DNA of 64,000 bases. Origin: Podarcis pityusensis (taxonomy: Eukaryota). The notes under the pieces are model-generated. The model was not told the DNA's origin. It searched no databases and was given only the letters and a program-made list of their open reading frames with translations. The stretch lies in the NCBI GenBank assembly GCA_964106645.2, contig OZ067040.1. The stretch is one strand, 5' to 3'. Positions 4,178 to 63,869 of the stretch are shown one piece after another (the stretch's first letter is position 1; each line of letters opens with the position of its first letter). Made by a program: the position numbers and the translations under genes.

Positions 4178-4237
4178 TGCCTACTGTTCTTGGATCTCTC
4201 ATGGCTAAGTCACACATTTAGCTGGATGTTGCAGTTA

Positions 4238-4723
4238 CAGTGGTACCTCGGTTTTCGAATGCACAGTGGTACCTTGGGTTAAGAACTTAATTCGTTCTGG
4301 AGGTCCGTTCTTAACCTGAAACTGTTCTTAACCTGAGGTACCACTTTAGCTAATGGGGCCTCCCGCTGCCACCAGGCCGCCACCGCACAATTTCTGTTCT
4401 CATCCTGAAGAAAAGTTCTTAACCTGAGGTACTATTTCTGGGTTAGCGGAGTCTGTAACCTGAAGCATCTATAACTTGAAGCATCTGTAACCCAAGGTAC
4501 CACTGTAATCCTTTCCGGAAGACCGTTCAAGTTCTGAAACGTTTGAAAACTGAAAACTCAACAGCCGACACTTAGGCCTCAGGATCTTGCACTCAACAGA
4601 AGCTGCGTGCCATGTTTGACTTCTGAGGCGTGTTTGAAAACCACAGTATTTACTTCCGGGTTTACAGCGTTCGAAAACTGAAATGTTCGTCAACGGTGAC
4701 ATTCAAAAACCGAGGTACCACTG
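4238..4723. mobile_element. Tc1/mariner-type MITE (outer element of a nest)
   Basis: TIR CAGTGGTACCTCGGTTTT...AAAACCGAGGTACCACTG with TA on both flanks. Confidence 0.85.
4264..4505. mobile_element. Tc1/mariner-type MITE nested in the previous one
   Basis: TIR CAGTGGTACCTTGGGTTA...TAACCCAAGGTACCACTG. A sister copy lies at 42762-42973. Confidence 0.85.
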
Positions 4724-7700
4724 TATATGAAAACACATGCATGAGCTAGCCTTTGGAAGGGGCCATAGCTCAATGGTAGACTGTAGGCTTTGTAGGCAGA
4801 AAGACCATGGATCAACCCCTGGTATATATCAGTTAAAATGATAATGTGATGGGAAAAACTCTGGAGAGCTACAGTCAGGCAGCAAATGTGTCAGCTTGTC
4901 TGACCTGGTTTATAGCAGCTACCTATGTTTCAGTGACCTTGGTGATGTTGCTAACACTTTATGCTAACTTTCTCATGGAGTTGTTGCGAGGTTATAAACC
5001 TTGGATGCTTCTGACTGAGTGAAAAAAAAAAGGGGGGGGAACGATCCAAGTAATAAAATTATGCCTTTCCCCACAGAAACCTCTGGAATGTTTTCTCCTC
5101 ATTACAAATTATAATCTATTGTTCCAACTAGCAATATAGTTCAGGGTTGCTCTACATATCATGATTTTCTGCATCAGATCAAGTTCTTCTTGGATGCAAG
5201 CCACCTCCCACTGAGCTCACTGGCAAAAATCCCACTGTTTCTGGATCGTATTCCTTGTGTCAAAATTCCATACATTTCTCAAGTGTAGCAACTTTTAATA
5301 GCAATAGAAATAATAAAGATAATAAGATCTCATCGCTGTTTAAAATGTTCTAAACACGTAAGGCAAGCCCAGGAAAAAAAAAAGTTGAACTCTGTCATAA
5401 CTGTCAAGGGAAAAGAACACATACTGCATGTATTATCAGGTTTACTCGACATACGGGAACAATACCAGTTATAGAACTACATTTGCATGCAGATGCAAAT
5501 ATCTGCATATGTTATCTGCCTGGATATGAGCTTTAAATATTATAGACCTCAGAGGAAATAAGCCATAGAAATGTACTCAGATATCATCCCTGAAAATCAT
5601 CCAATTACTTGGAACAACATTCCTTGTATATATAAAGATATTTTTGATTTGAAAAGAGTTCCAGTGAATATGCAAACACTTTGCAGAAAGGTATTCATCC
5701 TTAGGATGGGAGCAACAGGCAAAACACCATTGCTATACATCTCAATTTATTTTAGTGGGGCAATGGAAGAGTTTTGCACAGAAAAAGAACAGCAGATGTT
5801 CTTAGCCACTTCTGCCCCATCACTGACCTTGCTTGTATGTCATTATAAACCATAGCTAAAAGTTTACTGTGAACATGCCAATCTTAGCTGCTTTGCTTTT
5901 CCTGCTATTGCATGGGGGGAACACAAGCCATGATCCCTAACTCAGTGTTATGTCCAATATGGGAATCATGTTTTGTTTTTCTCCCAACAACCATGATCTG
6001 TAGGCCAAGGTTTATTCCAGGCTTACTGATTGTGACTTCTTTTGAAATAAACCACAGTCTCCAAGTTGGATGTAACATCACCCTGGGGTTATGGTTTGTT
6101 TTCCCTACTCTCAAGAGGAGAGAAATAAAATTGCCTAGATTGGAGCGCTCCTAGTAAACCATCAACTATGATGCACTGGGTCACTGTAATAGTCCCTGTT
6201 TAATGCTGAACAAGAAGTATTTTTCTTAAAGAACTATGCATAACAGGTCCTTTAGCTACTTTCTCACTGGCCTCTCCCTATCCTCCTTACCTAGATATTG
6301 GAGGCATCCTTAAAGGTATAGTCACGTTTATCCTCACAGCCGCTGCTATGATCTGTTTAAGTCCAAGAAAGTGAACCTGCTTGCAGGTCAACAGGATACA
6401 GGAATAGAAACTAATGGGTAATTAATATAAGTGTTGCAGGACCTGAGCTACTTAGAACAAACCTTTGCAAGAATATAGAACTCCTTAAGATTTCAGCTCT
6501 AAATATGAGAGAAATTAATTCATTGGCAAATGGCAGTGGAGCATTGCCGTTGCAGAACATCATTGTGCACTGGTTTACAAATTAAAGAATTAGTGGTATG
6601 TGAGATCTGGTCAGAGATATCAAATAAGAAAATGGGAAAATCCAAATGAAAGTATTTGGGTACCTGAAGATGGACTAGGCAACAGAAGTGGCGTGAACAC
6701 AAGAAATGCTGGATTTAGGAACAGAAATGGCAAGTTTGTGATATTTCAAAAGCTGGAGGGCACTGGGTAGAGCAACAAGAAATTGCACACTTACTGCCCA
6801 AGATTGTAAATCTTAAGAACAGCCTGTACATGTATAAAAGAACATTCATTTCTCATAATCCATGGAGGATATAGCACTGCAACAATCTGTTATGGTGATG
6901 TTGCAGACAATGAAAGAGCTGTTCCACAAGCTGTTACTTTAAGTTATACACCAAGGAGTATTAATACAGTGAATCTCATTCAAGGAGCTGAAAACCTGTG
7001 ACAAAGGCAGGTAAGCCTTTCATTGTGATTACGCTTAGCAGATGGAAAACATTGCATGAACCATCTGGGGTCATGCAGTGCTGCTGGGTTTTGCTGTTGT
7101 ACAATCATTTTGGTCCTGTGTCAAGGCTGAAAGACAACAGAAGATGAAATGCACAATAAAAAGCAAGTAAATGACAAAGAAGCGAGTAAAACAGTAGGCA
7201 GGTGTCCAATGCAGTTGAAAGGTAATTGCCTCCAGAGCCTGTCCCAGCCCTACCTAGAGATATTGGGGATATATTCACAGGCAAGATATGTGTTCTGCCA
7301 CCAGTGAGCCTTTCCCTATACTGTATTTATGCAAAAAATGGATTTGGAGGTCCACCATCATTTTGCCTCCCTGACCTCCTTTGGAAGGAAGCGCAGGATA
7401 TAAATGTAACAATAAATTAATTAAATAAACAAATCATTTTAATTGTATTTACTTCTTTAACCATCCTCCACAATATTAACCCAGGGTAGTCTACAAGGCA
7501 AATGAAAGCAACAACATAGACTCAACCCATGAAGACCAAGAAACAAGTGAAACAATTAAATATCAATTAAAACAACAGTGATTCTAGATTTCCACTGTTT
7601 CATAGACAGCACTGTTCCAATACTTTATACATACAAACCCAAGAATAACCCAATGCCTATGATGCACCTAGTTCCATATCTGGGGCACTACAAATGAGAA

Positions 7701-9199: not shown

Positions 9200-11581
9200 T
9201 AATACACAGCAAAGCACAGGTCATGTCAGTCTTGTCAGATCTCTTAGTGAGAGCCAGATGCAAAAGACATACAGATAGAGCTAAAGAAGAGGGTGCCTCT
9301 GAGCACATTTGTTTTTAGTACCAGAACTGAACTCAGCTTATTCAGTCCTTTCACACAAAACCCCCCTTCCTGGTTTGCTGTCTTCATTTCAACAGTCTAT
9401 TTTAGTTGTTTCCCCCTGTCAACCTTTATTAAGTTAAAATGAATACATCCATACAGTATTTGCCATTACAAGCTTACAACATAAGAAAGAAAAGAAAAAT
9501 GCAAAATAAGGACAAGTGTATAAAAATCAAGGAAAAAAGAAGAGAAAAAATATGCGTAATTATGAGATTCCTCAACACTGAGTATTTTGTTAATACAATG
9601 ATTATTCACACAATTAGAAATAAAAAGTGCTGCAAACATTTAAAAAGACTTCCAAGTATTCTCATTGTACTTTATCTGTTATGTACATTATACTGCACAG
9701 TTACCTGTTTCTTGTGATTTTTCGTTATACCTCAGTTACCTTTTATGAATTTCAAGGATTAGTCTAATTCTGCCAGGAGATTTCTGTTTACAGCATAATT
9801 TTTTAGGTATTCTTTATACAGTATATTCTCTATGAAAAGAGTGAACTCCTTACCCACCCATCTAATGAATTATCAGATTCCTTCTCCATGGGCCCCACCT
9901 GCTAAACTGCTTACAGGTATCAGTATAATAATACAATGATAGGTGATGGAAAACAGACAGACTTCAAGAGAACTTCTGCAGAATAAGCTATTTATGGACT
10001 TCAGTGTTCACATGTGCTATTTTTTTTTGTTTTTCCACTGCTTCTCAGTAACTTTTTGATATTACATGAATGATGGCTAACTTTGATCTTCCTCTTCAGC
10101 AAAATGCAGCCATCTGTCCCAGAGCTGTTTTAAGAAAAATAGCATTCACTTCCATTATTTGGCAGTGTTTCAAAAATAATAATAATAAAATTCCAGTATT
10201 CTGCTACAGCTAATGTTACCTTGGGGCATTTTTGGCATGCTTCTGATGTAAATGCATTGTACATGTGGCCAGGAAGAACAACATCGTGTTGCATCATGTA
10301 AAAAGAAAACACTGTTTCTTCCCTGATCGCTCATTTCCAATCTATATAAGCAGATGGCTGAACAAAGAAAAAAGACCTGTCTTGGAACAAAATAATTAAA
10401 CCCACAAAACAATGGCATGCATGAGGCCCAACTTAAAAGCACAAGGTCAAATCATTCTACGTTTCCCCTTTTTAAAAATTAAACTCTATTTATTATATTT
10501 AACTCTTAGAAACCTGACAATATTTTCCTTTTCTTGGTTGACCCCAAGTTTTATTTGCGATATATAGTTGTGTTTTCGTCTAGTATTTAGAAGATGTCCT
10601 TAAATGTCATTTGTATTTTTATTCTTGTTCTGTAAACTGCATACAGATTTTAACTAAGCTGCACGGAAACTGTATAACTTAGCTAAAAAAGAAGAAGAAA
10701 GAAATAAGAGGCTAGCCTGGCATGTAACAGCAGCACCTCTTCCTACTTGGGGGAGTGTCGCCTTATTTATTTATTTCACAAAATTTATACACCACTTACT
10801 AGAACAAAAGGCTTCTTCTCAGTTTCCAGTAGACAGTCTAAAATAATCAAAAACATGTTACATAACGTTTTGAAAATATCAAATAAAATCAGTAATATCA
10901 TGTGCTAAAATTACAGGCCTGGGTAGTCTTGCTGGAACAAAAAGGTTCTTAGCAGGCGCCGAAAACAATACAGCGAAGGTTTTCTCCATAATCCAGTTAG
11001 AACTGGCTAGGGTGTGTTAGTCTGTATGCCTAGTGAGCACAAGCTGTGTGGTTTTGTTGGTGTCTGTTGTTCTTGCATGAAGAAAATTGAATAAAGAACA
11101 TTAACCGTTACTCCTGCTGTTTCTTGGCTTGGAGGAGGCTAGCTGGAAGGTCATCTCACAACAGAGAGCACTCTCCTCCATGCCCAGTGGCGAAGGATAC
11201 ACGGGCCTGAGGATTGCTCCTGGGGTCTGGCAGAAAACACCTGTGGCAAAGCTCTGTGCTTTTCTCCATTCCTGTCCTGACATGGCTGGGAGCCCCTAAC
11301 AAGAAAGCTTTTGTGGTCTTTCCTCCTGACCAAGAGGGCCCAAGGGTTTGCTTGGGTGGCTGGAGACAGTCAAGAGGAGCCTGGGAGTACATGAGGCCTA
11401 TCACTTCACTTACACTATCGCAACCTCATACCTTCCAAGCACCCTGGGGGAGAAAGGGACATCCCATTATTATTTTTTGCACAAGATCTTGGCAGCCTTG
11501 GTAATCTGCACTGGGGAAGGTGAACATAGGAAGTTGACTTATAGCTAGTCAGACCATTGATCCATGATGATCAGCATTGTC

Positions 11582-12728
11582 TTTTTTTTTTTTTAAGAAT
11601 AATTTTTTATTAACCGACCAATCACATCAAATCAAACCAAATTACATAAATTCCAAATTACACAGCCGAATTTTAAATTTTTGTTGGGGTTACCCATATT
11701 TCAAGTTCCGAAGGGATCCAATCAACTTCTTGCTTCTTACTGCTGTTTTAATGTCCACAAATCTAACCTTATGATGTTCACAGTACTATCCAGTCCTTTC
11801 TTATTATTTTTCCACATCTCTTGTTGTTATTTTCATATATTTTTCCTTTCTCTTTGTGACCTCTGATAGTCTCCGCAAGCTGGTTAGAACAGTTTGTAAT
11901 CCTGCGTGGATATTAATTTTTTTATCCAGTAGCCATATTCAGACGTTTTCCATATAACATCACTTCCATACATCAAAACAGTCTTAGTGTCATTAATCTT
12001 CACCAATCTGCCTCCTTTCTCAAAACCTCTGAGGAGATTCACTAGGAATGCAGTCTGAAAACAAATCCATTCTTCCTCCCGGCTATAAATCCTTTGGCAA
12101 GATGGCGACTCCGAATTAATTGCTGCGCCATTCCCAAAAGCTCTTATTGCTTCTCGGTCTCCATAAAGCATACTTTTGGTTAAAGTTTATCTCCACACAG
12201 ACCTTGATCATCCTGCTTGGGTCAGTTCAACCGACGGTTCTAATGAGGAGGGGTTCTTGTAAATCACATAGAAGGAAAGTAAAAAAGGTTCCCCCCCCCA
12301 TTCAGCCCCATTGTCAACATACCCCGCCTTTGGTGTATCTTCATCGTAAAATATTCCTGTTTCTCCAGCCCGTCGTCTTCTTTTGCAGAGGTCACTTAAA
12401 TTAGCAGACTTCACTCCCCTTCTTCACTTGAAATATGTGCATTTGCTTCTTTTGTAATTAATTATTCCAAATTGCTGCAACTAGTGCGCGATCAGAAACA
12501 GCGTCCAGGAGAGCCGATGTCCACACGGGGGCATTCTGCCTAGGGCCCTCACCCCCTTCTTTCGAATTAGGGGGTGATTTATGGGCACAGCAGGCAAGGG
12601 CAGTGTTCCCCATTTCCTTGGGGCAACAAGGGAGGCTGCCTACTCCCATAACAGCCTCTTAATTACCCCGTGTGGGTCGGAGAGATCGTATTGTCGGCCA
12701 TCTTCCAATGCGCCCCCTAGTGGCCCCC
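11582..12728 (-). mobile_element. Complete 1.15-kb non-autonomous L1-mobilised retroelement inserted in an older SINE
   Basis: Perfect 17-bp TSD TGATGATCAGCATTGTC at 11565-11581 and 12729-12745; A13 tail at 11582-11594; AATAAA at 11611-11606; 5' end GGGGGCCACTAGGGGGCGCATTGGAAGATGGCCG. Confidence 0.85.
12695..12723 (-). promoter_or_regulatory. CTCF core motif plus YY1 motif at the retroelement 5' end
   Basis: CCACTAGGGGGCGC at 12723-12710 and AAGATGGCCG at 12704-12695. Confidence 0.65.
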
Positions 12729-15702
12729 TGATGATCAGCATTGTCAACAATGACAGGCAGCAGCATGTAGGCAAGAATCTCCAAGCCCTTCCCAGAGACA
12801 CCAGGGATTGAACCTGGGACCTTTTGTATGCAAAACATGTGTATCTGCTGCAACCCCCGCCAACGCTTCCTGCCTTACCCACTTGAGTAGAAGAGGCAGT
12901 GTGGGGAAACTGGAATGTTGATGGTGTTGCCACATGTTGACAGATGCCTTTCATTCAGGCTGGTATAAGGGTGTCATTGGCAAGTGATCTTGTGAGTTAC
13001 TAGGGAGCTACACTGTGGAAATAGTTGCTCGTGTTGCTACATCAGCACTGGTTTCTGCAGCTGTTGAACTTCTGGCTTTGTTGCTGGTTGAGCAACAGAT
13101 CATGAATCGTTCCCCACCTACACTATACATTTAAAGCAGTGCGATTCCACTTTAAATAGCCATCGCTTCCCCCTAAAGAATCATGCGAATTGTAATTTGT
13201 TAAGGGTGTTGTCAGGAGACCCCTACCCTCCCTCAAGCTACAATTCCCAGAGTTCCCTGGGAAGAGGGACTGATTGTTAAACCACTCTGGAAACTGTGGC
13301 TCATAGCAATCGTCATCTTAGTTGACCCATTGGTTGAATACAAAGTTACCTTATACATCAATATGTATGTTTATGTGGAATTGGAATTGCCACAGCTACT
13401 ATTCTTTAAATAAAACAAACCGATATTTTGTTTTGAATGCATATTTCTTTAAACACTTTCAATTGTGTCTTGCAATGACAAACTGGTGTTACCTACCATC
13501 TCCTCCCACATTCTTCTTTGACCTTTTTGGGATGAAGTCTTCATCCTTAGTATTAGTATAACAAAGCCTTAAGAATTGCACATAAATTCCCAGTCTATCA
13601 CATCCTTCCTTTTGCCGAATACTGAACATTCTTTTCTTGCCCTAGCTGTTGTCTTTGGCTATAAAAACCGGTCTTTCCATTTAAAAAAAAAATCATGGAG
13701 GCTTTAATAGTGTATATATAGTTTCTGAATAAACATTTGCTTTCTATCAAAACAGCTGTTCTCCGTCACTCTACTAATTATTTCAAACTGATTAGTTTAT
13801 AATCAGTTTTCCAGTATATGTATAAGGGTGCTTAATACTCTCCACAGTACAGATTCAATTAAAAACCAGATTTCCGAAGTATTGTGTAAATAACCTTCAG
13901 TGTTAAAATTGTAGTGTACTCTGGGCTGAACCTACCATTAGGCAGGCTTAGACAACCTGACCTGGATGCCAGATTTTGAAGAACCATCCAAGCACAGCAA
14001 ATAGTCAATAATTGGGTTTAATATAATATATTTTGCTACCATGAGAGAACCTTTTTATTTTCTTCTTTGGGTTCCAAAGTGCCTCAAACCATTTGTATGG
14101 TGCAAAGTCAGAGGTGTCTGCATTTCAACTAGTAGATAAGATAGTTTCTGTTTTCACAGTTTTGAACCAGGACTCCCAAATTCCAGCACATTACTTCCTT
14201 GGGCCACCAACACTCTCATTTCTGTAGTAAGCCTGATAGGTAGTGTTCTGGACTCCAAGAGAACCTCTCAGTCTGCTAACTCCTAGGATCAATTCTGGTG
14301 CACTATAAAGCCCTGGTCTCAAAGGGTGCTCCATCACAAAACTTAGAGTGCTGAGGAGTAGACAGTCAAGTTGGTTTGAAAAATGAAGTATAAACAACTC
14401 AGATAAATACTTTTAAACTTCCAAAACCAGGTTTCTCACAATATCGGTTTAACGCAGGAAATTCTACCCAAGCAATCAATGTAACGGATAGTCACTATAT
14501 CAAAAATTATCACATTAATTAGCTGGAGAGAAATTTTCTACACCACTCTTCATATTCCCATTTCAACATTTGATTCTTAAGTGGGAATTTGGAGTCAAGC
14601 CTCCCAACCCTGCCAAAAGCAGAAATAACATGGCATATATGATGCTCCTTTGGTTAAACAGACTCCACTGGCTATTGCAGAGGCCCCCTTAGAAGGGAAA
14701 ATTAAAACCAGAAACACAAATCCAGCCATCATGTGGGAGGTGATTAACAGTTTAAATAACCCAGCTGTACATGACCTGTTCAATATTCCAGAAACCGTAT
14801 GAATGTGAATTGGACTCACTGCATTACGACTTCAAAAGTAGATACTGACCACACTTATGGGCCCCCCTGATTTAATCTAGTGATGTCATGAAGGAGGAGG
14901 CATATATCCAGAGGACAGCATATAATTGTCCCTATGCTACACTCTATTGAGGATCCAGCAACAAAGGGCACCATTTGTTATGCGGCATATCCAATGAACA
15001 AGCCAGGTGGTAATGAAAAGAACAGACGTTAGGAGCAATTTGAGTCTAGTGAGCTGCTCATGGTTTTAGATTGGAAACGGCAGGTATGCGTGGGAAGGGC
15101 AGGACAATAAAATGAACAAATATTTAAAAACAGATGTTAAGGGAATAGGGACTCCACTCAGGAACACTTACGCTTTGGTTGCTGTAAGAACTATGGATGA
15201 ATCCCAGTAAAGGCAATGAAGTACCGGATTACTGTTCTTTTATAGTACAAAGGATGTGTACTGCAGCCCCTTCCCGTGTTATTAATCTGGCTCCTCTCTG
15301 GTTACAAATGCAAAAACATTCCAGTCAACATGAATCACAGCATGCAGAAATGGAAAAGACCTAGCAAGCCATCCACTTTATCACTTAAGCAAAGTAGCAT
15401 TGCTCTTTGCATGGCTGCACACATGCTCTACAGAATAAATGTTATTGTGTTGCTGTTTTTAATCTTGAATGCTTTAGCATGGGAACCCAAAGTCTATACC
15501 CAAAATAACCATGCAGCTGCCAGTTCAATTCTATAGTTTCTTGCGCAAGCAAAAAGGAGGACAGCTTCAAGCTCAAGAGACATATCACCAGTGTCTGTTG
15601 CAGCAGAGCACAGAGAACACCCTCCTGGTTTTATATATCAGGGCAAGTGACCAGTGGAACTATGCTGGCATGGCCAAAAGCATGATGCTGGTGATCACAA
15701 TT

Positions 15703-17259: not shown

Positions 17260-17506
17260 GGAAGTGACCCGAGGGGGGGGGGAAGAGTTCGAAGGTCGAA
17301 GGTGGCGGCGGGAAGAAGATGGCGGCGGCGAGGGACTTGCCTTTGCATCTTAGCGGCTGGGACGCGCTGATGGGGGTCCTCGGCAGCCTGAGCCGGGGCT
17401 GAGGCGCCCGTTGCTGGTGACGCTTCGGAGCGTGGTGAAGGAGCCGCGAGGGCTGAGGCCTCCTTCTCCTCCTCCTCCAGCTGACGCTTCTGGGTCCGCG
17501 CATCAG
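17260..17506 (+). other. LCLAT1: Probable non-coding exon 1 of LCLAT1 (start approximate)
   Basis: Strong donor CAG|GTGAGG at 17506/17507 inside the CpG island. The first coding exon is preceded by a splice acceptor, so an upstream exon is required. Confidence 0.7.
17319..17402 (+). CDS. Candidate uORF, 27 aa (MAAARDLPLHLSGWDALMGVLGSLSRG)
   Basis: AAGATGG strong Kozak context; TGA at 17400-17402, before the exon 1 donor. Confidence 0.45.
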   Translation: MAAARDLPLHLSGWDALMGVLGSLSRG

Positions 17507-21114: not shown

Positions 21115-22280
21115 ACCCAATATGGAGGCTAAATGGCCAAAATATTGGGAAATACTAGAAAAAGATGGAGACAACTGGAAATTGCAGAGTTTGGAGAAAA
21201 TGAAGGATAAAGTGCGAGACTGGTTACATTACGCTCAGATTAAAGAAGTCTTTAAAAATGACAAGAAACTAGGGTTCCAGGTGGAGAAATCGAAACTAGA
21301 AACAGAACTGTTAGAACCAAAGTCTAAGGTACTTTCAAGGATGTATAACTTGCTGTTAAAATGGAATACACAAGATGAAATGGTTAAATCGGCTATGATA
21401 AGGTGGGCGCAGGACATTGGGTACAATATCATGTTTGAGGACTGGGAAAGGTTGTGGAGTACTGGGTTGAACTTTACTGCATGCAATGCTTTGAAAGAAA
21501 ATGTAATGAAAATGATATATAGATGGTATATGACCCCAGTCAAACTTGCAAAAATATACCACCTGCCTGATAATAAGTGTTGGAAATGTAAAGAGAGTGA
21601 AGGAACATTCTTCCACCTCTGGTGGACCTGCCCTAAAGTGAAGGCGTTCTGGGAAATGATTTATAATGAACTGAAAAAGGTATTTAAGTATACCTTCACA
21701 AAGAAACCAGAGGCCTTTCTTTTGGGTATTGTCGGCCAAGGGGTGGTAAAGAAGGACTGGACATTCTTTATGTATGCAACAACAGCAGCAAGGATACTAC
21801 TTGCAAAGCACTGGAAAGCTCAAGATCTACCCACACTGGAAGAATGGCAGATGCAACTGATAGACTATATGGAACTGGCCGAGATGACCGGCAGAATTCG
21901 TGACCTGGGAGAAGAGAAGATGGAGGAGGACTGGAAGAAATTTAAGAACTATTTACAAAAACATTGTAACTTGAGTGAATGTTAAGCAGGATGCTAGATC
22001 ATAAATAATTGAGCACCACTAAATTAGATGATTTAAGATAATAAGTGAGATTGAGAAAATATAAACCTTTTTGAGAATTATAAGATTATAAATATACAGA
22101 TGGGACATAAGAATGCAAATAAGATAATAAATTGCTGGCAAAAAGTTACAACGATGAAAGTGGGAGCGGGAGATGTGAGGAAGTCCAAAGAAAATGTGAA
22201 ATTATGTTAAGATATATGTTATACTGTTTATTATATTTATTTTTATTGTAAACCCCAATAAATATTTAAAAAAAAAAAAA
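21115..22280 (+). mobile_element. 5'-truncated young L1 (LINE-1 clade) in LCLAT1 intron 1
   Basis: Perfect 15-bp TSD GAGAAGTTGAATCTG at 21100-21114 and 22281-22295; AATAAA at 22257-22262; poly(A) to 22280. Confidence 0.95.
21122..21985 (+). pseudogene. C-terminal 287 aa of L1 ORF2p (cysteine-rich zinc-knuckle region)
   Basis: CWKC-x8-HLWWTC CCHC motif, followed by TAARILLAKHWK, typical of vertebrate L1 ORF2 C-termini. Confidence 0.9.
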
Positions 22281-42640: not shown

Positions 42641-42761
42641 CATTTATTATGATTATTTTATCATATTGTTATGCTTTTTATTATGTTTTCACTATTGACG
42701 TTCTGTAAAACGTTTTCTTAATGCTGTACACCACCCTCGGATCTTTTGATAAAAGATAGTA

Positions 42762-42973
42762 CAGTGGTACTTCGGGTTAAGTACTTAATTCATTCCGGAG
42801 GTCCGTTCTTAACCTGAAACTGTTCTTTACCTGAGGTACCACTTTAGCTAATGGGGCCTCCCACCGCCGCACAATTTCTGTTCTCATCCTGAAGCAAAGT
42901 TCTGAACCCAAGGTATTATTTCTGGGTTAGTGGAGTCTGTAACCTGAAGCGTATGTAACCCAAGGTACCACTG
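42762..42973. mobile_element. Tc1/mariner-type MITE
   Basis: TA-flanked TIRs; sister of 4264-4505. Confidence 0.85.
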
Positions 42974-45496
42974 TATATAAATTGAAATGATGATGATGGA
43001 AGTGCAAGGCCCCTTGCATCCAGGAGGAGGACTCCTGCCAAGTTTAGTTTCAGCTTCAGAGAATCTTGGCTTTGCATTACTTGTGAACCAGTAATTCTGG
43101 CTTAAAGCAAACAGTGGTTAGTTTCTAAAACAAGCAGACCTCAAACCATGGGTTAGCTGGCATGTTTTAACTGCTGATTGTGTTTGCACATGATGCTAAG
43201 CCATCATGCTTTGACATTTAAAGTAAACTTGGCAGAGGAGGGCAAGGAAAGTAACATGTGAGCCTGATGCTTTGTTGAGACTTGTCTCCGTAATGCTGAA
43301 CCATGATTTAGTGTTACAGGCAAACAAGCCCAGCAGCTGCATACACCTCCTGCCCAATGTGCATGGACAATAAGCTTGTGCATTTCTACCTCCAGTGCAG
43401 CTGAGAAGAGGATATCAGAAACTTCTGCTTCCATCTTCCATTTTCAACTATCCATATGTTCTTGTTATGGCTGAATCTGGACAAACTGTACTTAGAGTTA
43501 GCTATGATTTATTGAAATAAGCAAAGTTCAAACCCTGATTATGGACCCTGATCTGATTTAGTAAATCATAGTTAGCATTGTGCACAAAAAGCTAAACCAT
43601 GGTTCAGCATTATGTGTGAACCAAGACAGTGAGTCAGTGGCAGAGGTGGAACTTCATGCTAGTCCTCCCAAATGCAAATTAGGTGGATTGGATAATATTT
43701 CCTGTATTGCTTACTAAAAATACTCTCTGGCATTCTGAATGAAAAGCTTGACAGACAGCCCTCTCCTTTATAAGCAGTATGTGTGTTTGTGTTTTGTAAA
43801 CAAGAGACTTTTTTTTCTTGTTCTGTTATTTACCAAAACTAAAAGCCACAATTTTCGAAATTCTGTGCTTGTTTGACACAGTGTATTTGTTAGATAATTC
43901 AGGCACCACTCCATTGTACTCACATCTTGATTTGCTGGAGAGAGCCAGGTTCTGCATGTTCATGCTTTACTGGAACTTGAAAATAAATGGGCTCCAATGG
44001 CTTTGCGTAATGGGTTGCTTTTCCACTGCTATTTCTCCCCACTTCCACCAAACTGAAAGCACTAGTTTCCTGCCTGTCTTGTGTGATTTCTTGCATGTAA
44101 TTTTAAAGCTGCCTTTTAGAGAGCTCTTCAGAGTAGTGAACAAGAAAAGCCTGTGCAAAGCTCCTCATCTTCTAAACAACCAATTTAATCCTAAATAATG
44201 GAAAACTGGCTATTTGCAGATTCTAATTTAGAAAATTAGTGTTTCCATATTTGTTTAATGATAACAAGGTGGCTGCTATGATGGAAAGTTTCCTAGACAA
44301 TAATAAGATACTCTTTGGTCCACATTTGGCCAGCAACATTTCTTATTGTATCTAGCACATTTAATAACAGATCTACATTATGGTTCTAACCGACAGTAGA
44401 GCTACTCTGATAGTCTTGTCATAATTTATATTATCTTAATTATATTTATAATTTTATTCTGATTATATCTTAATAGAGATTGCTGATGTATTGTATTCAT
44501 CCCAGAGTATGTTGCAATGGTGATTTGGGAATTGATGTAGCATTTTTTTCTTACAGAGGGGTCAGTTCTGCAGTAATATATTCTGCAGCAGAAGGTGAGA
44601 AAATTTTAGAGTAAACACAGACAGGGAGATATGCTCCCTTGGACACCCTCATTTGAATTCCCGTTAGGCTGAAGGCCAAACTAAATGTTATGCTAGTGCC
44701 GTACATGATTTATTCAAAAGCTGATTTGGGGGCCAGAGCTGGACCGGTACCTGGAGGGAGCAGGCTTTAACCCCTTGCCTCTGGTATGGCCTCATTTAGA
44801 ATCGCATATTCTCACTCCCACCTCAGCGTTTCATGTTCCTTTACTTTTTGAAGTAATGCTTTTATTTAATTATTTTAATTCAACAATTTATACACAGCTT
44901 AGCAGCGTAGTTTCTAAGCAGTGTACAGTGAGGTTACAAAGGAGATGCAACAGATAAAACAAGTTAAAAATTTTACCAAAAAAGCTTCCTTTTGTTCACA
45001 AAGTGCCTGTAGTTCAGGGAGGCAGGCGGCCTGTTTTGATTTCAACTGGGAAAGAGAATTAGGCTGACAATACTGAATGCACGGCTCCTGGCAGATGCAA
45101 GCTGTGCACCTGAGCCATGGGGGGACCATTACAGTTTGTGTCTGTTTCAAAACTTTTCAGGGCTCTCTTGGTGCAAAATCCACAAGATCTGTCTTTGCAA
45201 AATGGAATGAAAATCACATGCTGAGTACAAATTATAGGGTGGTGGGTTCAGTAATGGTACAAGTTATCTAGGCAGCTATATTGTGGGTTACACTGGAGGT
45301 ACTGAGTGGCTTTAAGAAACTGACCATCTCTGGCCTGAGGCTGACTTGCCAACAAACTGGTTTTCTTCTCCTCTCTCCAAAATGTATGACAGAAATTGAG
45401 TACCGTCAATTGAAAAGCATGGAGAGGAGCCAATTCAGGAAGACATCAGCATTGAAGCTGTTTCCATAAACACCTTTCTTTCTCTTTTTCAGAGCC

Positions 45497-55061: not shown

Positions 55062-56143
55062 TTTGGAAGTTGGAACATTAACCCTGCTCTAAATTTGTGC
55101 TGGGAAAGGGGAATAAAATGACTATTGTAATAGCTTGTAATCCTGCTTTTTATGCTTTAAATAAGTCTGGTCTCATAAAGATCTGTGTTGTAAGGGAACA
55201 TTTTGTGAAAAGTGATGGCTTAGAATAATAATTTGAAGGGATCAAAACACAAAGACCAAAGGTTCGGTTTAAAAAGCATTCATCTAGTCTCCCATAGGTA
55301 AACTGAATTCAGGCCAGTGTGTTAAAATCACTAAAAACAACTAATTTGCATATTTTTGCCTGCTAAGCAAATGTGCCAGATGACTCAAGTAAGCAAATCA
55401 TCTACTAAACATCCTATAAAAGTTTTGTTTATACAAAATGGGGGCGGGGGAGAGGAAATAATATGTTCCGATTCACTTGAAATGTCCATACCTTCCAGCT
55501 CAAGCATCTTAATGTAGAGGGCAAGGAGCCAATGTACTACCTGATTAACTAGAGAGGTTGGGTCTTGTCGTCTGGGCAGCCCAGGATCTCCATGCACACA
55601 GCCCAGGCTAGTACCCTGGGGAGATCACTTTGGTGCCAGTAATGACTTCACCCTTGGAGACACATTCCATTGTCTCCTGAGACAGATGGATGCCAACAGC
55701 CTTATAGACTGAGAATAAGTAGGCAGACTTGAGGTTGCATGTCAAGCAATGAGACAAGCATCTGGATTAGAGGTGAATACCACATAGCAGAGTTCAGAGA
55801 AATAATAGATGGATATTCAGCTGAGGTTTTGTTTTGCTGCAGCAGTCCTTACTGATGATTAAACTGAACCTTACCTGCATGCAAGTCTTCCTCCATTCAT
55901 TCATGTCGTTTTGTTGGATCCTGGCTGTAGAGAAAGGATCAAACAAGGAAGCACTCACCTTTCCAGAGATGGCTGGTCATGAAAGATGCTAGTGTCCATA
56001 GACATAAAGTAGAATTGCAGAGGGATGCTTTTGCAATTTTTAAAAAATAAGATCAAAGCTGTAGCTTGTGTGATAATTTCTTTAATTCATAGCTAATTTT
56101 TCGTCTCATATATACCCCACAATATTGAAGACTTTCACATTTA

Positions 56144-56826
56144 CAGTGGTGCCTCGCAAGACGAAATTAATTCGTTCCGCGAGTTTTTTCGTCTAGCGAA
56201 TTTTTCGTCTTGCGAAGCACGAAATCCCATAGGAATGCATTGAAATTCAATTAATGCGTTCCTATGGTCAAAAACAAGAGTTTATTAAGTGCTCTTTAAA
56301 GCCAAATTTGGTACAACAAGAGTTTATTAAGTGCTCTTTAAAGTCACACCCACCACACAGAAATTCAAATCCAGAATTTTTTTTAAAAAACAGCAGAGTG
56401 GCCCAATGGTCACAGAAAATCATAAAAATGCAGAAAAAAACCACACAAGCTTCCAGATTCTTGCAAACCCCTCCCCAACACCAAATCCTTGAATTCCAAA
56501 CACCCCAACCCAAAATCCAAAAACCCCCAAAAAAGTTTTAAAAGTTTAAAAGAAGTTTTGGAAAAGCTTCAAAAATCACCAAAGTCTTCAAAAACTTCAA
56601 AAAAGGCTACCACACCGCGTTCTATGAGTTGCTCCTCGAAGTCAAGTCGCAGCTGTATTAACGGTGTTAAGAAAAAGGAAACAAACTTGCAAGACGTTTT
56701 CGTTTTTCGTCTTGCAAAGCAAGCCCATAGGGAAATTCGTCTTGCGAAGCAGCTCAAAAAACGGAAAACCCTTTCGTCTAGCGAGTTTTTCGTCTTGCGA
56801 GGCATTCGTCTTGCGGGGCACCACTG
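56144..56826. mobile_element. Non-autonomous Tc1/mariner-type element, 683 bp
   Basis: TA|CAGTGGTGCCTCGCAAGACGAA...TTCGTCTTGCGGGGCACCACTG|TA, with multiple subterminal CGTCT(T/A)GCGA repeats. Confidence 0.9.
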
Positions 56827-58509: not shown

Positions 58510-59545
58510 TGTTTGTTTGTTTGTTTTTTAATATCCTTTTTATTATTTTTATTTTAACAAAGTAATAATAATAAATAAATACAAATAAAAATGTGCGCCC
58601 CCACCCCAAGACCATTCCATTGTAACTATCCAACCTCCCAAATTTCAACACCTCTTGCAATGATTTGACCTCTTTCCATTTTAACAATACAAATTCTACA
58701 AATACCTTCCATATTTCATCAAAATCATTTCTCCTGCATATTCCCTGTCTTACCTTAAGAGCACATGGTAATTTATTATTAATAGCTATATCTCACACCT
58801 CTTTAGACCATTCTTCCATTTTATATTCATCTCACCCCTTCCACTTCCAAGATATAACACCTCGTGCAGCTGTCAGTAAATTTGTGAGCAAGTCTTTCAT
58901 AGCCTGTGAACCTTCCACCCCATCATAAATTGAGAACAGTGCTACCTCTGGACATTTGGCCAGCTTTAACCCAGTGATTTCTGTTATCTCCTTAAACACC
59001 CTTTGCCTCTTTTAATTTGTTAATATTTTCTTGTTCTAAATCTTCTAAATTTCTTGTTATATTTATTCCCAAGTACTTTATTACATGTCTTAATTTTATA
59101 TCTATTTTTTTTCCTTCAAAAGTTTTTGGTTTACATCTTGATCGTAGTTAAATATCATCATCTCTGATTTGGACCAATTAATTCACAACCTTGTTTTTTC
59201 TCCACTTTTTTTTTCTAATGTGCCTCTATTGCCTGCATATTTTCCAACGGATTTTTGATTGCTATCAAGGTGTCATCTGCAAATAAGCTTATTTTCTCTT
59301 TTCCATTATTGCTTAATCCTTTTATATTTCCATCTTCTATAATTACATTGACCAGAGTTTCAATGACCAATACAAATAAAATTGGGGAAAGGGGGCATCC
59401 TTGTCTTGTACCTCGGACTAGTGTTATTTGTTCTGTTATACCATTGTTCACGATGGCATATGCCTTGTTCCTCAAGTATAATTGATTTATTAAACCCTTG
59501 AATCGTTCTACAAATCCTTTTTCTATAATCCTTTTTAACACAGTG
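58510..59545 (-). mobile_element. L1 fragment: RT core fused to the ORF2 C-terminus (internal deletion)
   Basis: RGTRQGCPLSPILF and ISLFADD motifs at 59215-59545; KCPEVALFSIY...LLTAARGVISWKWK below about 59005; (A/CAAA) tail at 58510-58529. Confidence 0.88.
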
Positions 59546-59647
59546 TTACAAAATTTATGTTTGATAATTTGAGAACTTAAGTTATGGATATGCACAAGCA
59601 AGAAATTTCCAGCACAGTATTTAAAAGACTCTTCAAAATTGTTCTAG

Positions 59648-59794
59648 GCTGGGCCATGCAGGTTGCTGCCTTCATTTTTATTCATAGAAGATGGGAAGAA
59701 GACAAAAATCATTTTGAAAATATGCTGGATTACTTCTGTGACATTAACGAACCACTGCAGCTCCTCATCTTTCCCGAAGGAACAGATCTGACAG
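59648..59794 (+). CDS. LCLAT1: Lysocardiolipin acyltransferase 1, coding exon 3
   Basis: (G)WAMQVAAFIFIHRRWEEDK...PLQLLIFPEGTDLT, containing the FIxR and FPEGTD motifs. Acceptor TTCTAG, donor CAG|GTACTT, 147 nt, phase 1 to 1. Confidence 0.97.
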
Positions 59795-60419
59795 GTACTT
59801 TAATTCAATTCTCTCCCCACCAATCTTCTCAGGGTAGAAAAAATTGTGTCACAATTATTCCATTTAAAAGTTTACAATTTAAAATGCAAGTTTGACCTGC
59901 CATGTGTTCAGTGGTGTTTTATCTTGAAAAGTTATGCTTTATGAGACTTCTACAAGTGATACTAGTACCCATAGGGCAGGAGCTTGAGAGGAAATACTGC
60001 ACATATTCTGAAGTGGGTTCAAAACGGCCACAACCTTTTTTTGATGTGGCATAGGGCACAGATCAACTGCGGATCATCCTTACTGCTATTTGATAGTACA
60101 GCCACCCAGCCCACATTGATGGGAGTAGCAGAAATATGATAAATTTCTAAGGTTTGAACGGCCTGGATGTTGGATGGGTATGGCAGCCCCCAAACTCGAC
60201 TGGGTTTTGAAGTGACATCCAAAGGTTCCTTAAGTGGATTAACTGTTTTTAATAATCTTATGTGTTAGTTGCCTTGAAACAACAATCTCCCAGTGGGGAG
60301 CAGGGAATCCCACCCGTTCTTATCCCTGCTGTACATCCAGCCCAGTGCTTCCAGTGTGTCTATAATGAGACATTGGCCTGGTTTGCGTGTCACATTAAGG
60401 CCAAGCTATGGTTTAACAC

Positions 60420-61597: not shown

Positions 61598-63346
61598 TAT
61601 AATATAGTATAGTATGAAATTAAAGAATGTGGTGCCTACGAGCACAGTTAGCTTTCTTCAATTTTAGCAGCCTTATTTAGGAAAATTTACTTTTTACTAT
61701 TGTTAAACAACAGGGAATCAGAAATTCTTGTCAATCTACCACAGAGATGTCCCAGTATACTCACATTCATCCAGAGATATCCCAGTGTACTCACGTTCAT
61801 GCCTTTGAGGATTTAGTATTGCACTATTGTCAGGGAACATGGCAAAGAAATATAAGCAAAATTAATAACATGCTGCCCCAAAGAACTTACAGTAAGTTTG
61901 ACAGTAGGGAAGGGAGCGCAAGCTGGAGGGATGGGAGAGGATAATAAAAGAATGGCAGCAGGAAAGAAGGGGCAGAGATGCTTGAGAGAGCAAAGTGTGT
62001 TCCAAGGAACTGAGGGCAAAATTAGAAGAGCAAAAGCCTTGGGGATATACCTGGTGCATTTTAAAAATCGGGTCACAGAGTTTGCGTTGGTGTGAATGAA
62101 AATGAGTAGCATAGATTGGCATGGTCTGCACAACTAGAAAGAAATTATTTGTCAGCAGAGTTCTGGATTAACAAGGGAAAGGGAGGAATTTAACAGTAGT
62201 TCAAGATGAGAAATTGGATAGAGAAGACACACTTTTGCCAGAAGAAATGGCATTACTTGGTGATAAATTAAATAAAAGCAACAAGAGGAAAGATAATAGA
62301 AGAGAGTAAGACCTGAAAAGAAAGATGAGAAGTGCAATCATCTACATACTGAGCTTGGGGTGGCAATATAGGAATAATTTTTTTGCTGCAAGTATTTCTC
62401 TCTATTCCTCCTATTCTAGCACTGAAATAGTTTTTTATATACCAAGTGGGGGGTCCTGATGTCCCAGAATTAATCAAGCTGTGAAATAGGTCCAGAAGTT
62501 GGTCAGGTTGCTAGGTACTTAAAGACATTTTTTCTGTTATGTGTCTGAGAGTCACAAAGTTCGATTATTCTTAGATTGTGTTGCCAGGCAAAGTAGTGCT
62601 ATGTGACAGCAGGTAACAAGTAGCTTTTTTTCTTCTGTGCGCTCCATCATAAATAGAATAAATAATAAACCAAATGCAAATGTTTGCTCTTGCATATAGC
62701 AGCTAAGTTTACACGGGAAGTAAACTGAAATGTGTTCCTGTAAGGAAGACAGCACAAACAGAATACTTTCTAATGACAAAGAATATCATATTCTGTTCAG
62801 GTTGTTTTGATTATGAAGTTTCACACTATCCCCTTGCCCCCGGAATGTCATGATTTTCCATCACCACTACATATTTCTGTGAAGTTTAAACTCAGTACAT
62901 TTGAAATATTAAAGATACAAAAGCATTTCAGTACTCTCCTCCCAGATCTTAATTATTTTGTACATTTTGTTTTTCTTTTATACCATTACCTTAGCAGAAC
63001 CAAGTATTTTTAGGGGCTAATAAAAATATTCATTATTTATTTTATTACTATTTCATAAAATGTATACAATGCTTGATTGTTAAAAAAAAAATCTCAACAG
63101 TGTTTACAAAGAGAGCAAAACAATAAAATTATCAGTAAAAAAAACATAAAACTCTGTAAATCATTCAAAACATAAAATCAACAATAAACTAAAAAGGTTC
63201 AAATATATATCTGCACATTACACGTCTGAGTAAGCTTGGGTAAGAAAAGTGTTTTTAGCAGGGACTGAAAAACGTACAGAGATGGCGCTTGCCTGAAGTA
63301 AATAGGCAGGGAGTTCCTGATTGTAGGCACTGCCAACACCAAAATA

Positions 63347-63869
63347 CAGTGGTGCCTCGCAAGACGAAAAGAATCCGTTCTGCGAGTCTCTTCGTCTTGC
63401 GGTTTTTTCGTCTTGCGAAGCAAGCCCATTAGCGGTTTAGCGGATTAGCGCTGTTAGCGGCTTAGCGGGCTTAGCGGATCAGCTGATAAGCGGCTTAGTG
63501 GCTTAACGGATCAGCTGTTAAGCGGCTTAGCGGATCAGCTGATAAGCGGCTTAGTGGCTTAACGGATCAGCTGATAAGCGGCTTAGCGGATCAGCTGATA
63601 AGCGGCTTAGTGGCTTAACGGATCAGCTGATAAGCGGCTTAGCGATCAGCTGTTAAGCGGCTTAGCGGCTTAGTGGATCAGCTGTTAAGCGGCTTAGCGG
63701 CTTGGGAAAAAGGGGGGGGAGGAAAAAAACCCAGCAGGAACTCGCAAGACATTTTCGTCTTGCGAAGCAAGCCCATAGGAAATTCGTTTTGTGAAGCACC
63801 TCCAAAACGGAAAACCCTTTCGTCTAGCGGGTTTTCCGTCTTGCGAGGCATTCGTCTTGCGGGGCACCA
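63347..63869. mobile_element. Non-autonomous Tc1/mariner-type element with minisatellite core
   Basis: Same termini and subterminal repeats as 56144-56826. The right TIR lacks the terminal CTG. Confidence 0.88.
63428..63702. repeat. Minisatellite built from GCGGCTTA and GCGGATCAGCTG(A/T)TAA units
   Basis: About nine GATCAGCTG(A/T)TAAGCGGCTTA blocks seen directly. Confidence 0.92.

Follow-up and report, generated by a model that had tools for sequence, protein, structure and literature searches.

An apparently young, putatively L1-mobilized retroposon family in wall-type lizards with predicted CTCF and YY1 motifs at its head

Introduction

What is the 1,147-nt insertion that lies at 11582..12728 on the minus strand of a 64-kb window from Podarcis pityusensis (the window being the whole stretch of 64,000 nucleotides that was analyzed), and what would it gain from the CTCF and YY1 motifs predicted at its first bases? 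In mammals, turnover of CTCF sites through SINEs has been documented by ChIP, according to the available part of the source (PMC3368268). YY1 is known to set the start of mammalian L1, as described in the available parts of two reports (PMC5381506; PMC7778262). The original prediction read the insertion as a mini Pol II non-autonomous retroposon. We asked what kind of element it is, how old and how numerous its family is, and what its head may do.

Results

The element reads from 12728 to 11582 and is a full-length copy of its family. It is flanked on both sides by an exact 17-bp direct repeat, and this 17-mer occurs only twice in the 64-kb window. The 5' copy of the target site duplication (TSD) lies at 12729..12745, with TT/GA as the target on the element strand, and the identical 3' copy lies at 11565..11581. 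The poly(A) tail (A13, read 11594-11582 on the minus strand; 11582..11594) is preceded by an AATAAA polyadenylation signal at 11606..11611 on the same strand, 17 nt ahead of the tail with 11 bases between. Thus, the perfect 17-bp TSD and A13 tail claimed in the original prediction were both found again. The insertion split an older SINE (11521..12838, with halves at about 11521-11581 and 12746-12838), which we take to be Squam3-like. When the halves are rejoined with a single TSD copy, the restored SINE can be aligned with two further copies elsewhere in the window.

Within these boundaries, the minus-strand element begins with a 250-nt leader (12479..12728; 58% GC, 11 CpG), becomes A rich from about +250, and has a G-run near +430. 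An A-rich stretch (11729..11928; 45 to 48% A at +800-1000) has an L1-coding-like composition with no homology detected and is followed by a T/G-rich 3' region of 130 nt (11595..11728), which is common to a diverged sister subfamily. The leader is likely an internal Pol II promoter/5'UTR. RNA folding gave z scores of -1.93 for the head and +2.39 for the tail, which indicates no special structure. Separately, the end of the leader (12437-12417, +292-312) and the start of the tail (11715-11695, +1014-1034) are complementary at 18 of 21 positions, a weak signal that was equaled in 4 of 300 shuffles.

The element sequence was present in 20 of the 24 runs listed (nine studies, six organism labels). 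Half or more of its words were present in 15 runs (best run, 0.69), and none of the listed runs containing it was recorded as RNA. We aligned 4 of the 24 listed runs (contig sets X1, X11, and X13 and RNA run X24) on 10900-13400 at 85% similarity. Summed contig depth over 14 element bins, relative to the unique flank, was 846 to 5,010x in X1, 484 to 2,988x in X11, and 628 to 3,137x in X13; this ratio is not a copy number, as overlapping short contigs contribute to it and the 5' bin takes in 19 nt of SINE. From these depth ratios we infer hundreds to low thousands of copies. The predicted multicopy family was therefore borne out (depth about 500 to 5,000x the unique flank in three genome runs), and the sequence is not single copy. 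We found that the ends of the element were two to five times deeper than its middle, which suggests that related subfamilies share their ends. The 5' bin was as deep as the 3' bins, which argues that heads are not preferentially lost.

We also looked for the insertion site without the element, a check in related lizards that the original prediction had proposed. X1 and X13 each contained a joint from 11538 to 12731 with one TSD copy, as in an empty site. In X1 the joint had a depth of 106.9, equal to that of the unique-flank contig ending at 11538, which marks it as the orthologous empty site. The X13 joint has just 22 letters on its short side. The X1/X13 flanks differed at 19 of 638 letters. 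The X11 flank (6 of 665 letters different) stops at 11564 and is followed by 95 further letters, which fits an empty site; the X11 joint was not among the 15 rows listed out of 105. Inside the element, we found three near-unanimous differences (12206, 12384, and 12497) among the 40 rows listed out of 230. The empty site in two related organisms and the three differences in the rows shown suggest that this copy is young and near its subfamily.

We found no lizard-derived copies of the element in metagenome contigs (three matches, none of them the element). In the paper listings examined, neither this family nor any lizard retroposon with a CTCF motif was described. This is apparently a lacertid repeat family so far undescribed, though it may already be annotated in a repeat library.

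The head of the element starts with a G5 run (12724..12728, minus strand), as do vertebrate L1s. Sequence matching placed a predicted CTCF/BORIS core motif at 12710..12723 (minus strand, +6 to +19) and a predicted YY1 motif at 12695..12704 (minus strand, +25 to +34), 5 nt past the CTCF core. These coordinates confirm the order given in the original prediction. The CTCF pattern, CCACYAGRGGGCGC, was taken over from that prediction and has a single exact match in the 64-kb window, at the element head. When the first 250 nt were shuffled with dinucleotides preserved, the exact CTCF core arose in 1 of 20,000 shuffles and the exact YY1 motif in 36 of 20,000. Among the 40 difference rows listed out of 230, no near-unanimous difference fell within 12695-12728, and a motif private to this copy, which had been named as a reason for doubt, was not seen in the rows shown. 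One contig in X11 (86% alike over 12606-12715) departs from the element inside the CTCF motif, so some relatives may carry another head. Taken from these rows, the CTCF motif is probably the family state, although a variant within it may be common among the other 190 rows.

The 33-nt module formed by the CTCF motif, 5 nt, and the YY1 motif recurs in an unrelated animal repeat (L001 and L003), where 29 of 33 positions are identical and the spacer is again 5 nt. The pattern had 0 matches in collections of prokaryote genomes and viral contigs. The repeat itself is 470 bp long, lies on two animal-like metagenome contigs (L001, 773-1241; L003, 828-1298) whose copies are 92% alike, and bears more YY1-type words spaced 162 to 163 nt. 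Since the two copies are one family, the shared CTCF-YY1 spacing could be coincidence. We regard the repeat as a lead, at the level of sequence, suggesting that the module may be functional.

We found no reverse transcriptase (RT) or other Pfam domain in eight minus-strand frame segments and two family proteins, in line with the predicted lack of RT motifs. An autonomous L1 was rejected: the element has 1.15 kb between its TSDs, a longest open frame of 100 codons, and no RT, and the RT fragment elsewhere in the window was detected. The predicted lack of a Pol III head was upheld. By the usual A- and B-box patterns, the B box is absent and there is one weak A-box match with one mismatch at +64. 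We found six runs of at least four T's on the element sense strand, no tRNA in the element, and no Rfam family in the 64-kb window. With these T runs and no B box, the element cannot be a Pol III SINE. A processed pseudogene with a protein-coding parent was likewise rejected, as this is a high-copy family with subfamilies and its protein has no relatives outside the family.

The relationship to L1 rests on layout. The 17-bp TSD falls in the range of about 7 to 20 bp of L1, the family is interspersed and multicopy by depth ratio, and a long TSD with AATAAA and poly(A) forms the same 3' layout in the two other L1-type elements of the window. The long TSD, AATAAA, and poly(A) suggest that L1 mobilizes the element. 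The canonical L1 target is TT/AAAA. The element's TT/GA, a single site, differs from it, and the window's other L1-type sites are also loose. All 12 segment comparisons of the element with two L1 3' fragments, an L1 5' part (1-1031), and a 2.2-kb element of the window stayed at shuffle level, and no protein-level L1 homology to the window's L1-type elements was found. The predicted lack of kinship between the 5' regions of this element and the 2.2-kb element was thus upheld for DNA, with the control (2.2-kb element versus the L1 5' end) at 247. Lizard L1 clades are described as very divergent in the available part of the source (PMC5381506), so missing similarity to the window L1s is expected.

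The other repeats of the window were recorded as well. The 2.2-kb element (4172-1975, minus strand) is a second mini L1-type element, with a clade-1 lizard L1 start, a TSD of about 15 bp, and poly(A); in its 5'UTR, it is related to the L1 that starts near 1031. It contains a 215-codon orphan open reading frame (ORF) (3233-2586) with four relatives at 35 to 78%, two of them annotated in Podarcis lilfordi, and with no Pfam or PDB match, and it is a candidate HAL1-like element. A 5'-truncated L1 at 21116-22280 (plus strand) points to recent L1 activity: the C-terminal part of its ORF2 is open over 289 codons, and it has poly(A) and a TSD of 14 to 15 bp. An old L1 RT fragment (58510-59620, minus strand) adjoins an exon at 59581-59895. 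Small inverted-repeat elements, presumably Mariner-like, lie at 4229-4732, 42761-42975, 56142-56823, and 63345-63869, the last of which contains a 56-nt/8-nt tandem array (63429-63703).

RNA run X24 carries another organism label, and about 12% of this one run was used. First mates in X24 fell on the plus strand at 8.0:1 over 13 element bins, compared with 0.94:1 over five neighboring SINE bins. By the usual library convention, the family RNA is the element sense strand. RNA depth was greatest over the first 330 nt, which include the GC-rich leader, and over the last 170 nt. Most reads were less than 95% alike to the element (at least 95% in 151 of 770), so this is RNA of the family and not of the copy at 11582..12728. 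The strand bias fits transcription from the element's own promoter; oligo-dT capture of read-through RNA may be an alternative source of the signal, and a start pileup was not seen in the X24 reads. As a loose end, 40 RNA reads match the final 135 nt of the element and at 11715 run into a diverged version, which appears to be an expressed sister subfamily.

The element carries one orphan ATG ORF of 95 codons (11884..12171, minus strand, read 12171-11884). In a family variant that is 1 nt shorter at 12133, the ORF grows to 108 codons with its ATG at 12211; this form (proteins P0001 and P0003) accounts for 8 to 16% of DNA depth and 4 of 8 RNA reads from one run. ATG ORFs of at least 95 codons arose in 2.8% of 1,000 shuffles and those of at least 108 codons in 1.0%, which makes the length modestly unusual. 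Ten upstream ATGs precede the 108-codon start. A search of 1.84 billion representatives returned only the family's own cluster for the ORF protein, which had no Pfam, PDB-sequence, or profile match either, and no homologue longer than the ORF turned up among 42 candidates. The best ESM Atlas value was 0.81, for an unrelated family with low recognition, with nothing usable beyond. The ORF gave an hhalign probability of 0.07 against the ORF of the 2.2-kb element. The full-length model had a pLDDT of 46 and no fold match. The C-terminal 71 residues, modeled from single sequence, are predicted to form a helix and three strands (mean pLDDT, 70.8). A fold search with this model, run without a lizard ORF1p control, gave a best Z of 4.0 and weak rows of the dsRBD type (Z, 2.5 to 2.9), and ORF1p was not listed; this speaks neither for nor against an ORF1p origin. 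A helix followed by three strands is the order of the ORF1p C-terminal domain.

A CpG-island promoter lies at about 17.2-17.7 kb, 4.5 kb from the element, and downstream of it the exon at 59581-59895 matches Pfam Acyltransferase; we take this gene to be LCLAT1. The element had been placed 4.5 kb upstream of the LCLAT1 promoter. The distance stood. A link to the LCLAT1-like promoter has no support: related organisms lack the insertion, and the CTCF motif faces lower coordinates, whereas the promoter lies on its other side, at about 17.2 kb. A conserved role at the LCLAT1-like gene is unsupported, and we consider one at its promoter unlikely. Under the convergent rule, the motif would anchor loops on the side away from the promoter. 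Inside the CpG island, YY1 and ETS-type words occur together at 17260-17330, as they do at the starts of lizard L1s of clade 1 in the available text of one study (PMC5381506).

Discussion

We put at roughly 70% the reading that this is a young, non-autonomous Pol II retroposon of the L1 type, probably derived by shrinkage from a lizard L1 with a short leader. In this reading, the CTCF/BORIS and YY1 head would serve the element's own transcription and spread motifs as a by-product. The mini Pol II retroposon of the original prediction stands in that the family is multicopy and young, has no Pol III head or RT, and has strand-biased RNA. By composition, which is resemblance and not homology, we would derive the element from a shrunken, decayed clade-2-type short-leader lizard L1 or from a HAL1-like derivative.

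According to this model, YY1 would position initiation at about +1, as it does in mammalian L1, and the head would act as an internal Pol II promoter, so that each copy would regenerate its promoter. CTCF or its paralogue BORIS would keep the head open and unmethylated, to the benefit of the element. The available parts of the sources propose CTCF as a protection of retroposons that shields them from methylation (PMC3368268), describe BORIS as widely expressed in a lizard (PMC2515639), and report that BORIS can turn CTCF sites into start sites (PMC10832218). The RNA would be cut at AATAAA and then polyadenylated, and L1 ORF2p would take it and insert it by target-primed reverse transcription, leaving the 17-bp TSD. 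Because the element is short, copies would retain the 5' end, and every new insertion would bring an oriented CTCF core with it. At some copies, insulation or the anchoring of loops would follow as a side effect.

A rival reading concerns the CTCF motif. The retroposon would be real, but the motif would fit a G-rich L1-type start only incidentally, would be methylated and unbound in most copies, and would affect neither the element nor genome folding. Vertebrate L1 starts consist of G/C-rich, Sp1-like words in the available text of the source (PMC5381506), the motif contains a CpG, host flank would have to supply the upstream portion of the long CTCF motif, and one diverged X11 contig has no motif; the single exact core in 20,000 shuffles and the recurrence of the module at 29 of 33 positions in an unrelated animal repeat, with none in the prokaryote and viral collections, weigh against chance, and we hold this explanation to be possible but on balance doubtful. 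We are somewhat more skeptical of the boldest form of the favored model. In it, CTCF/BORIS would drive the core promoter of an L1-derived mini-retroposon of wall lizards, a fixed CTCF-5nt-YY1 module that an unrelated invertebrate repeat also uses. The element would have left about a thousand CTCF sites, oriented and bound, whose presence varies among closely related species, and would still be rewiring loop anchors.

Other explanations concern what the element encodes and how it moves. It could be a coding, HAL1-like unit whose ORF descends, with much change, from the RNA-binding C-terminal part of L1 ORF1p and still aids entry of the RNA into L1 particles. The modestly rare length, the 108-codon form in other copies and in half of the eight RNA reads, the moderately confident model of a helix and three strands in the ORF1p order, and the orphan ORF that the 2.2-kb element also retains across copies 35 to 78% alike are consistent with this. 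However, the ORF has neither relatives outside the family nor a Pfam or PDB match, 10 ATGs lie upstream, most DNA depth is the frameshifted form, the coiled coil/RRM part is absent, and eight reads of one run are few; we consider a coding unit unlikely. As for movement, a Tx1-clade or other poly(A)-type LINE, not L1 proper, would account for the noncanonical target and for a 3' sequence that shares nothing with the window's L1 fragments, but the TSD length and 3' layout are those of the window L1 copy with the intact ORF2 C-terminus, and such an enzyme seems very improbable to us. Least credible is an origin from a cellular noncoding or small-ORF RNA that was processed and amplified and that carried along a housekeeping-type CTCF/YY1 5' end. 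The missing L1 homology, the orphan ORF, and the YY1 motifs usual at housekeeping starts (for example, at 17316 in the window) would suit it; a depth of hundreds- to thousandsfold, diverged sister subfamilies with shared ends, a G-run start, an L1-type 3' layout, and the lack of protein relatives argue against it.

If the favored model of a young L1-type Pol II retroposon is right, such an element would be spreading CTCF sites in lizards, with presence/absence differences between organisms 1 to 3% apart. It would scatter potential genome-folding anchor sites, as judged from sequence, in wall-type lizards. These would be natural experiments on the origin of new anchors and on the element's own use of CTCF/BORIS in transcription, and L1 would join the LINE clades that yield short, nearly noncoding derivatives. 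If CTCF does not bind, the element would still represent an apparently undescribed lacertid repeat family and a phylogenetic marker.

Among known systems, mammalian HAL1 is similar in being non-autonomous and ORF2-less, with L1-type ends and an internal Pol II promoter (here inferred), as far as the available parts of the sources describe it (PMC5753468, PMC5786205). HAL1 encodes a recognizable ORF1p, whereas the lizard element is half its size and has only the 95- to 108-codon orphan ORF. SIDEs, or bipartite LINEs (RIME, NARTc, Bov-A, Vingi derivatives, and Persaeus), are short, LINE-dependent Pol II elements with a LINE-like head and tail, and their ends, like those of the lizard element, are more widely shared than the middle; in the available parts of the sources, ORF-less SIDEs are reported from RTE, Ingi, Vingi, R2, and CR1 and not from L1 (PMC5786205, PMC6740152). 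In contrast to SIDEs, the lizard element has a long, unexplained middle, and it had no match among the four L1-type elements of the window. Its head repeats the mammalian L1 order of a G-run and YY1 but has between them a full CTCF core, which is absent from the mammal, anole, frog, and fish L1 consensuses in the available text of the source, and it has no match to the anole L1 start consensuses there (PMC5381506). The same text gives lizard clade-2 L1s a 5'UTR of 216 to 238 bp, a G-rich spacer, A-rich ORFs, and a 3'UTR of 96 to 154 bp (PMC5381506), a layout close to the 250-nt leader, G-run near +430, and 130-nt tail found here. Rodent B2, dog SINEC-Cf, and opossum MAR_Mdo, in the available part of the source, are likewise lineage-specific waves of retroposons that spread a CTCF motif (PMC3368268). 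They are mammalian SINEs with CTCF binding proven by ChIP, whereas the lizard element is of the Pol II type and carries its predicted motif at its very start, beside YY1.
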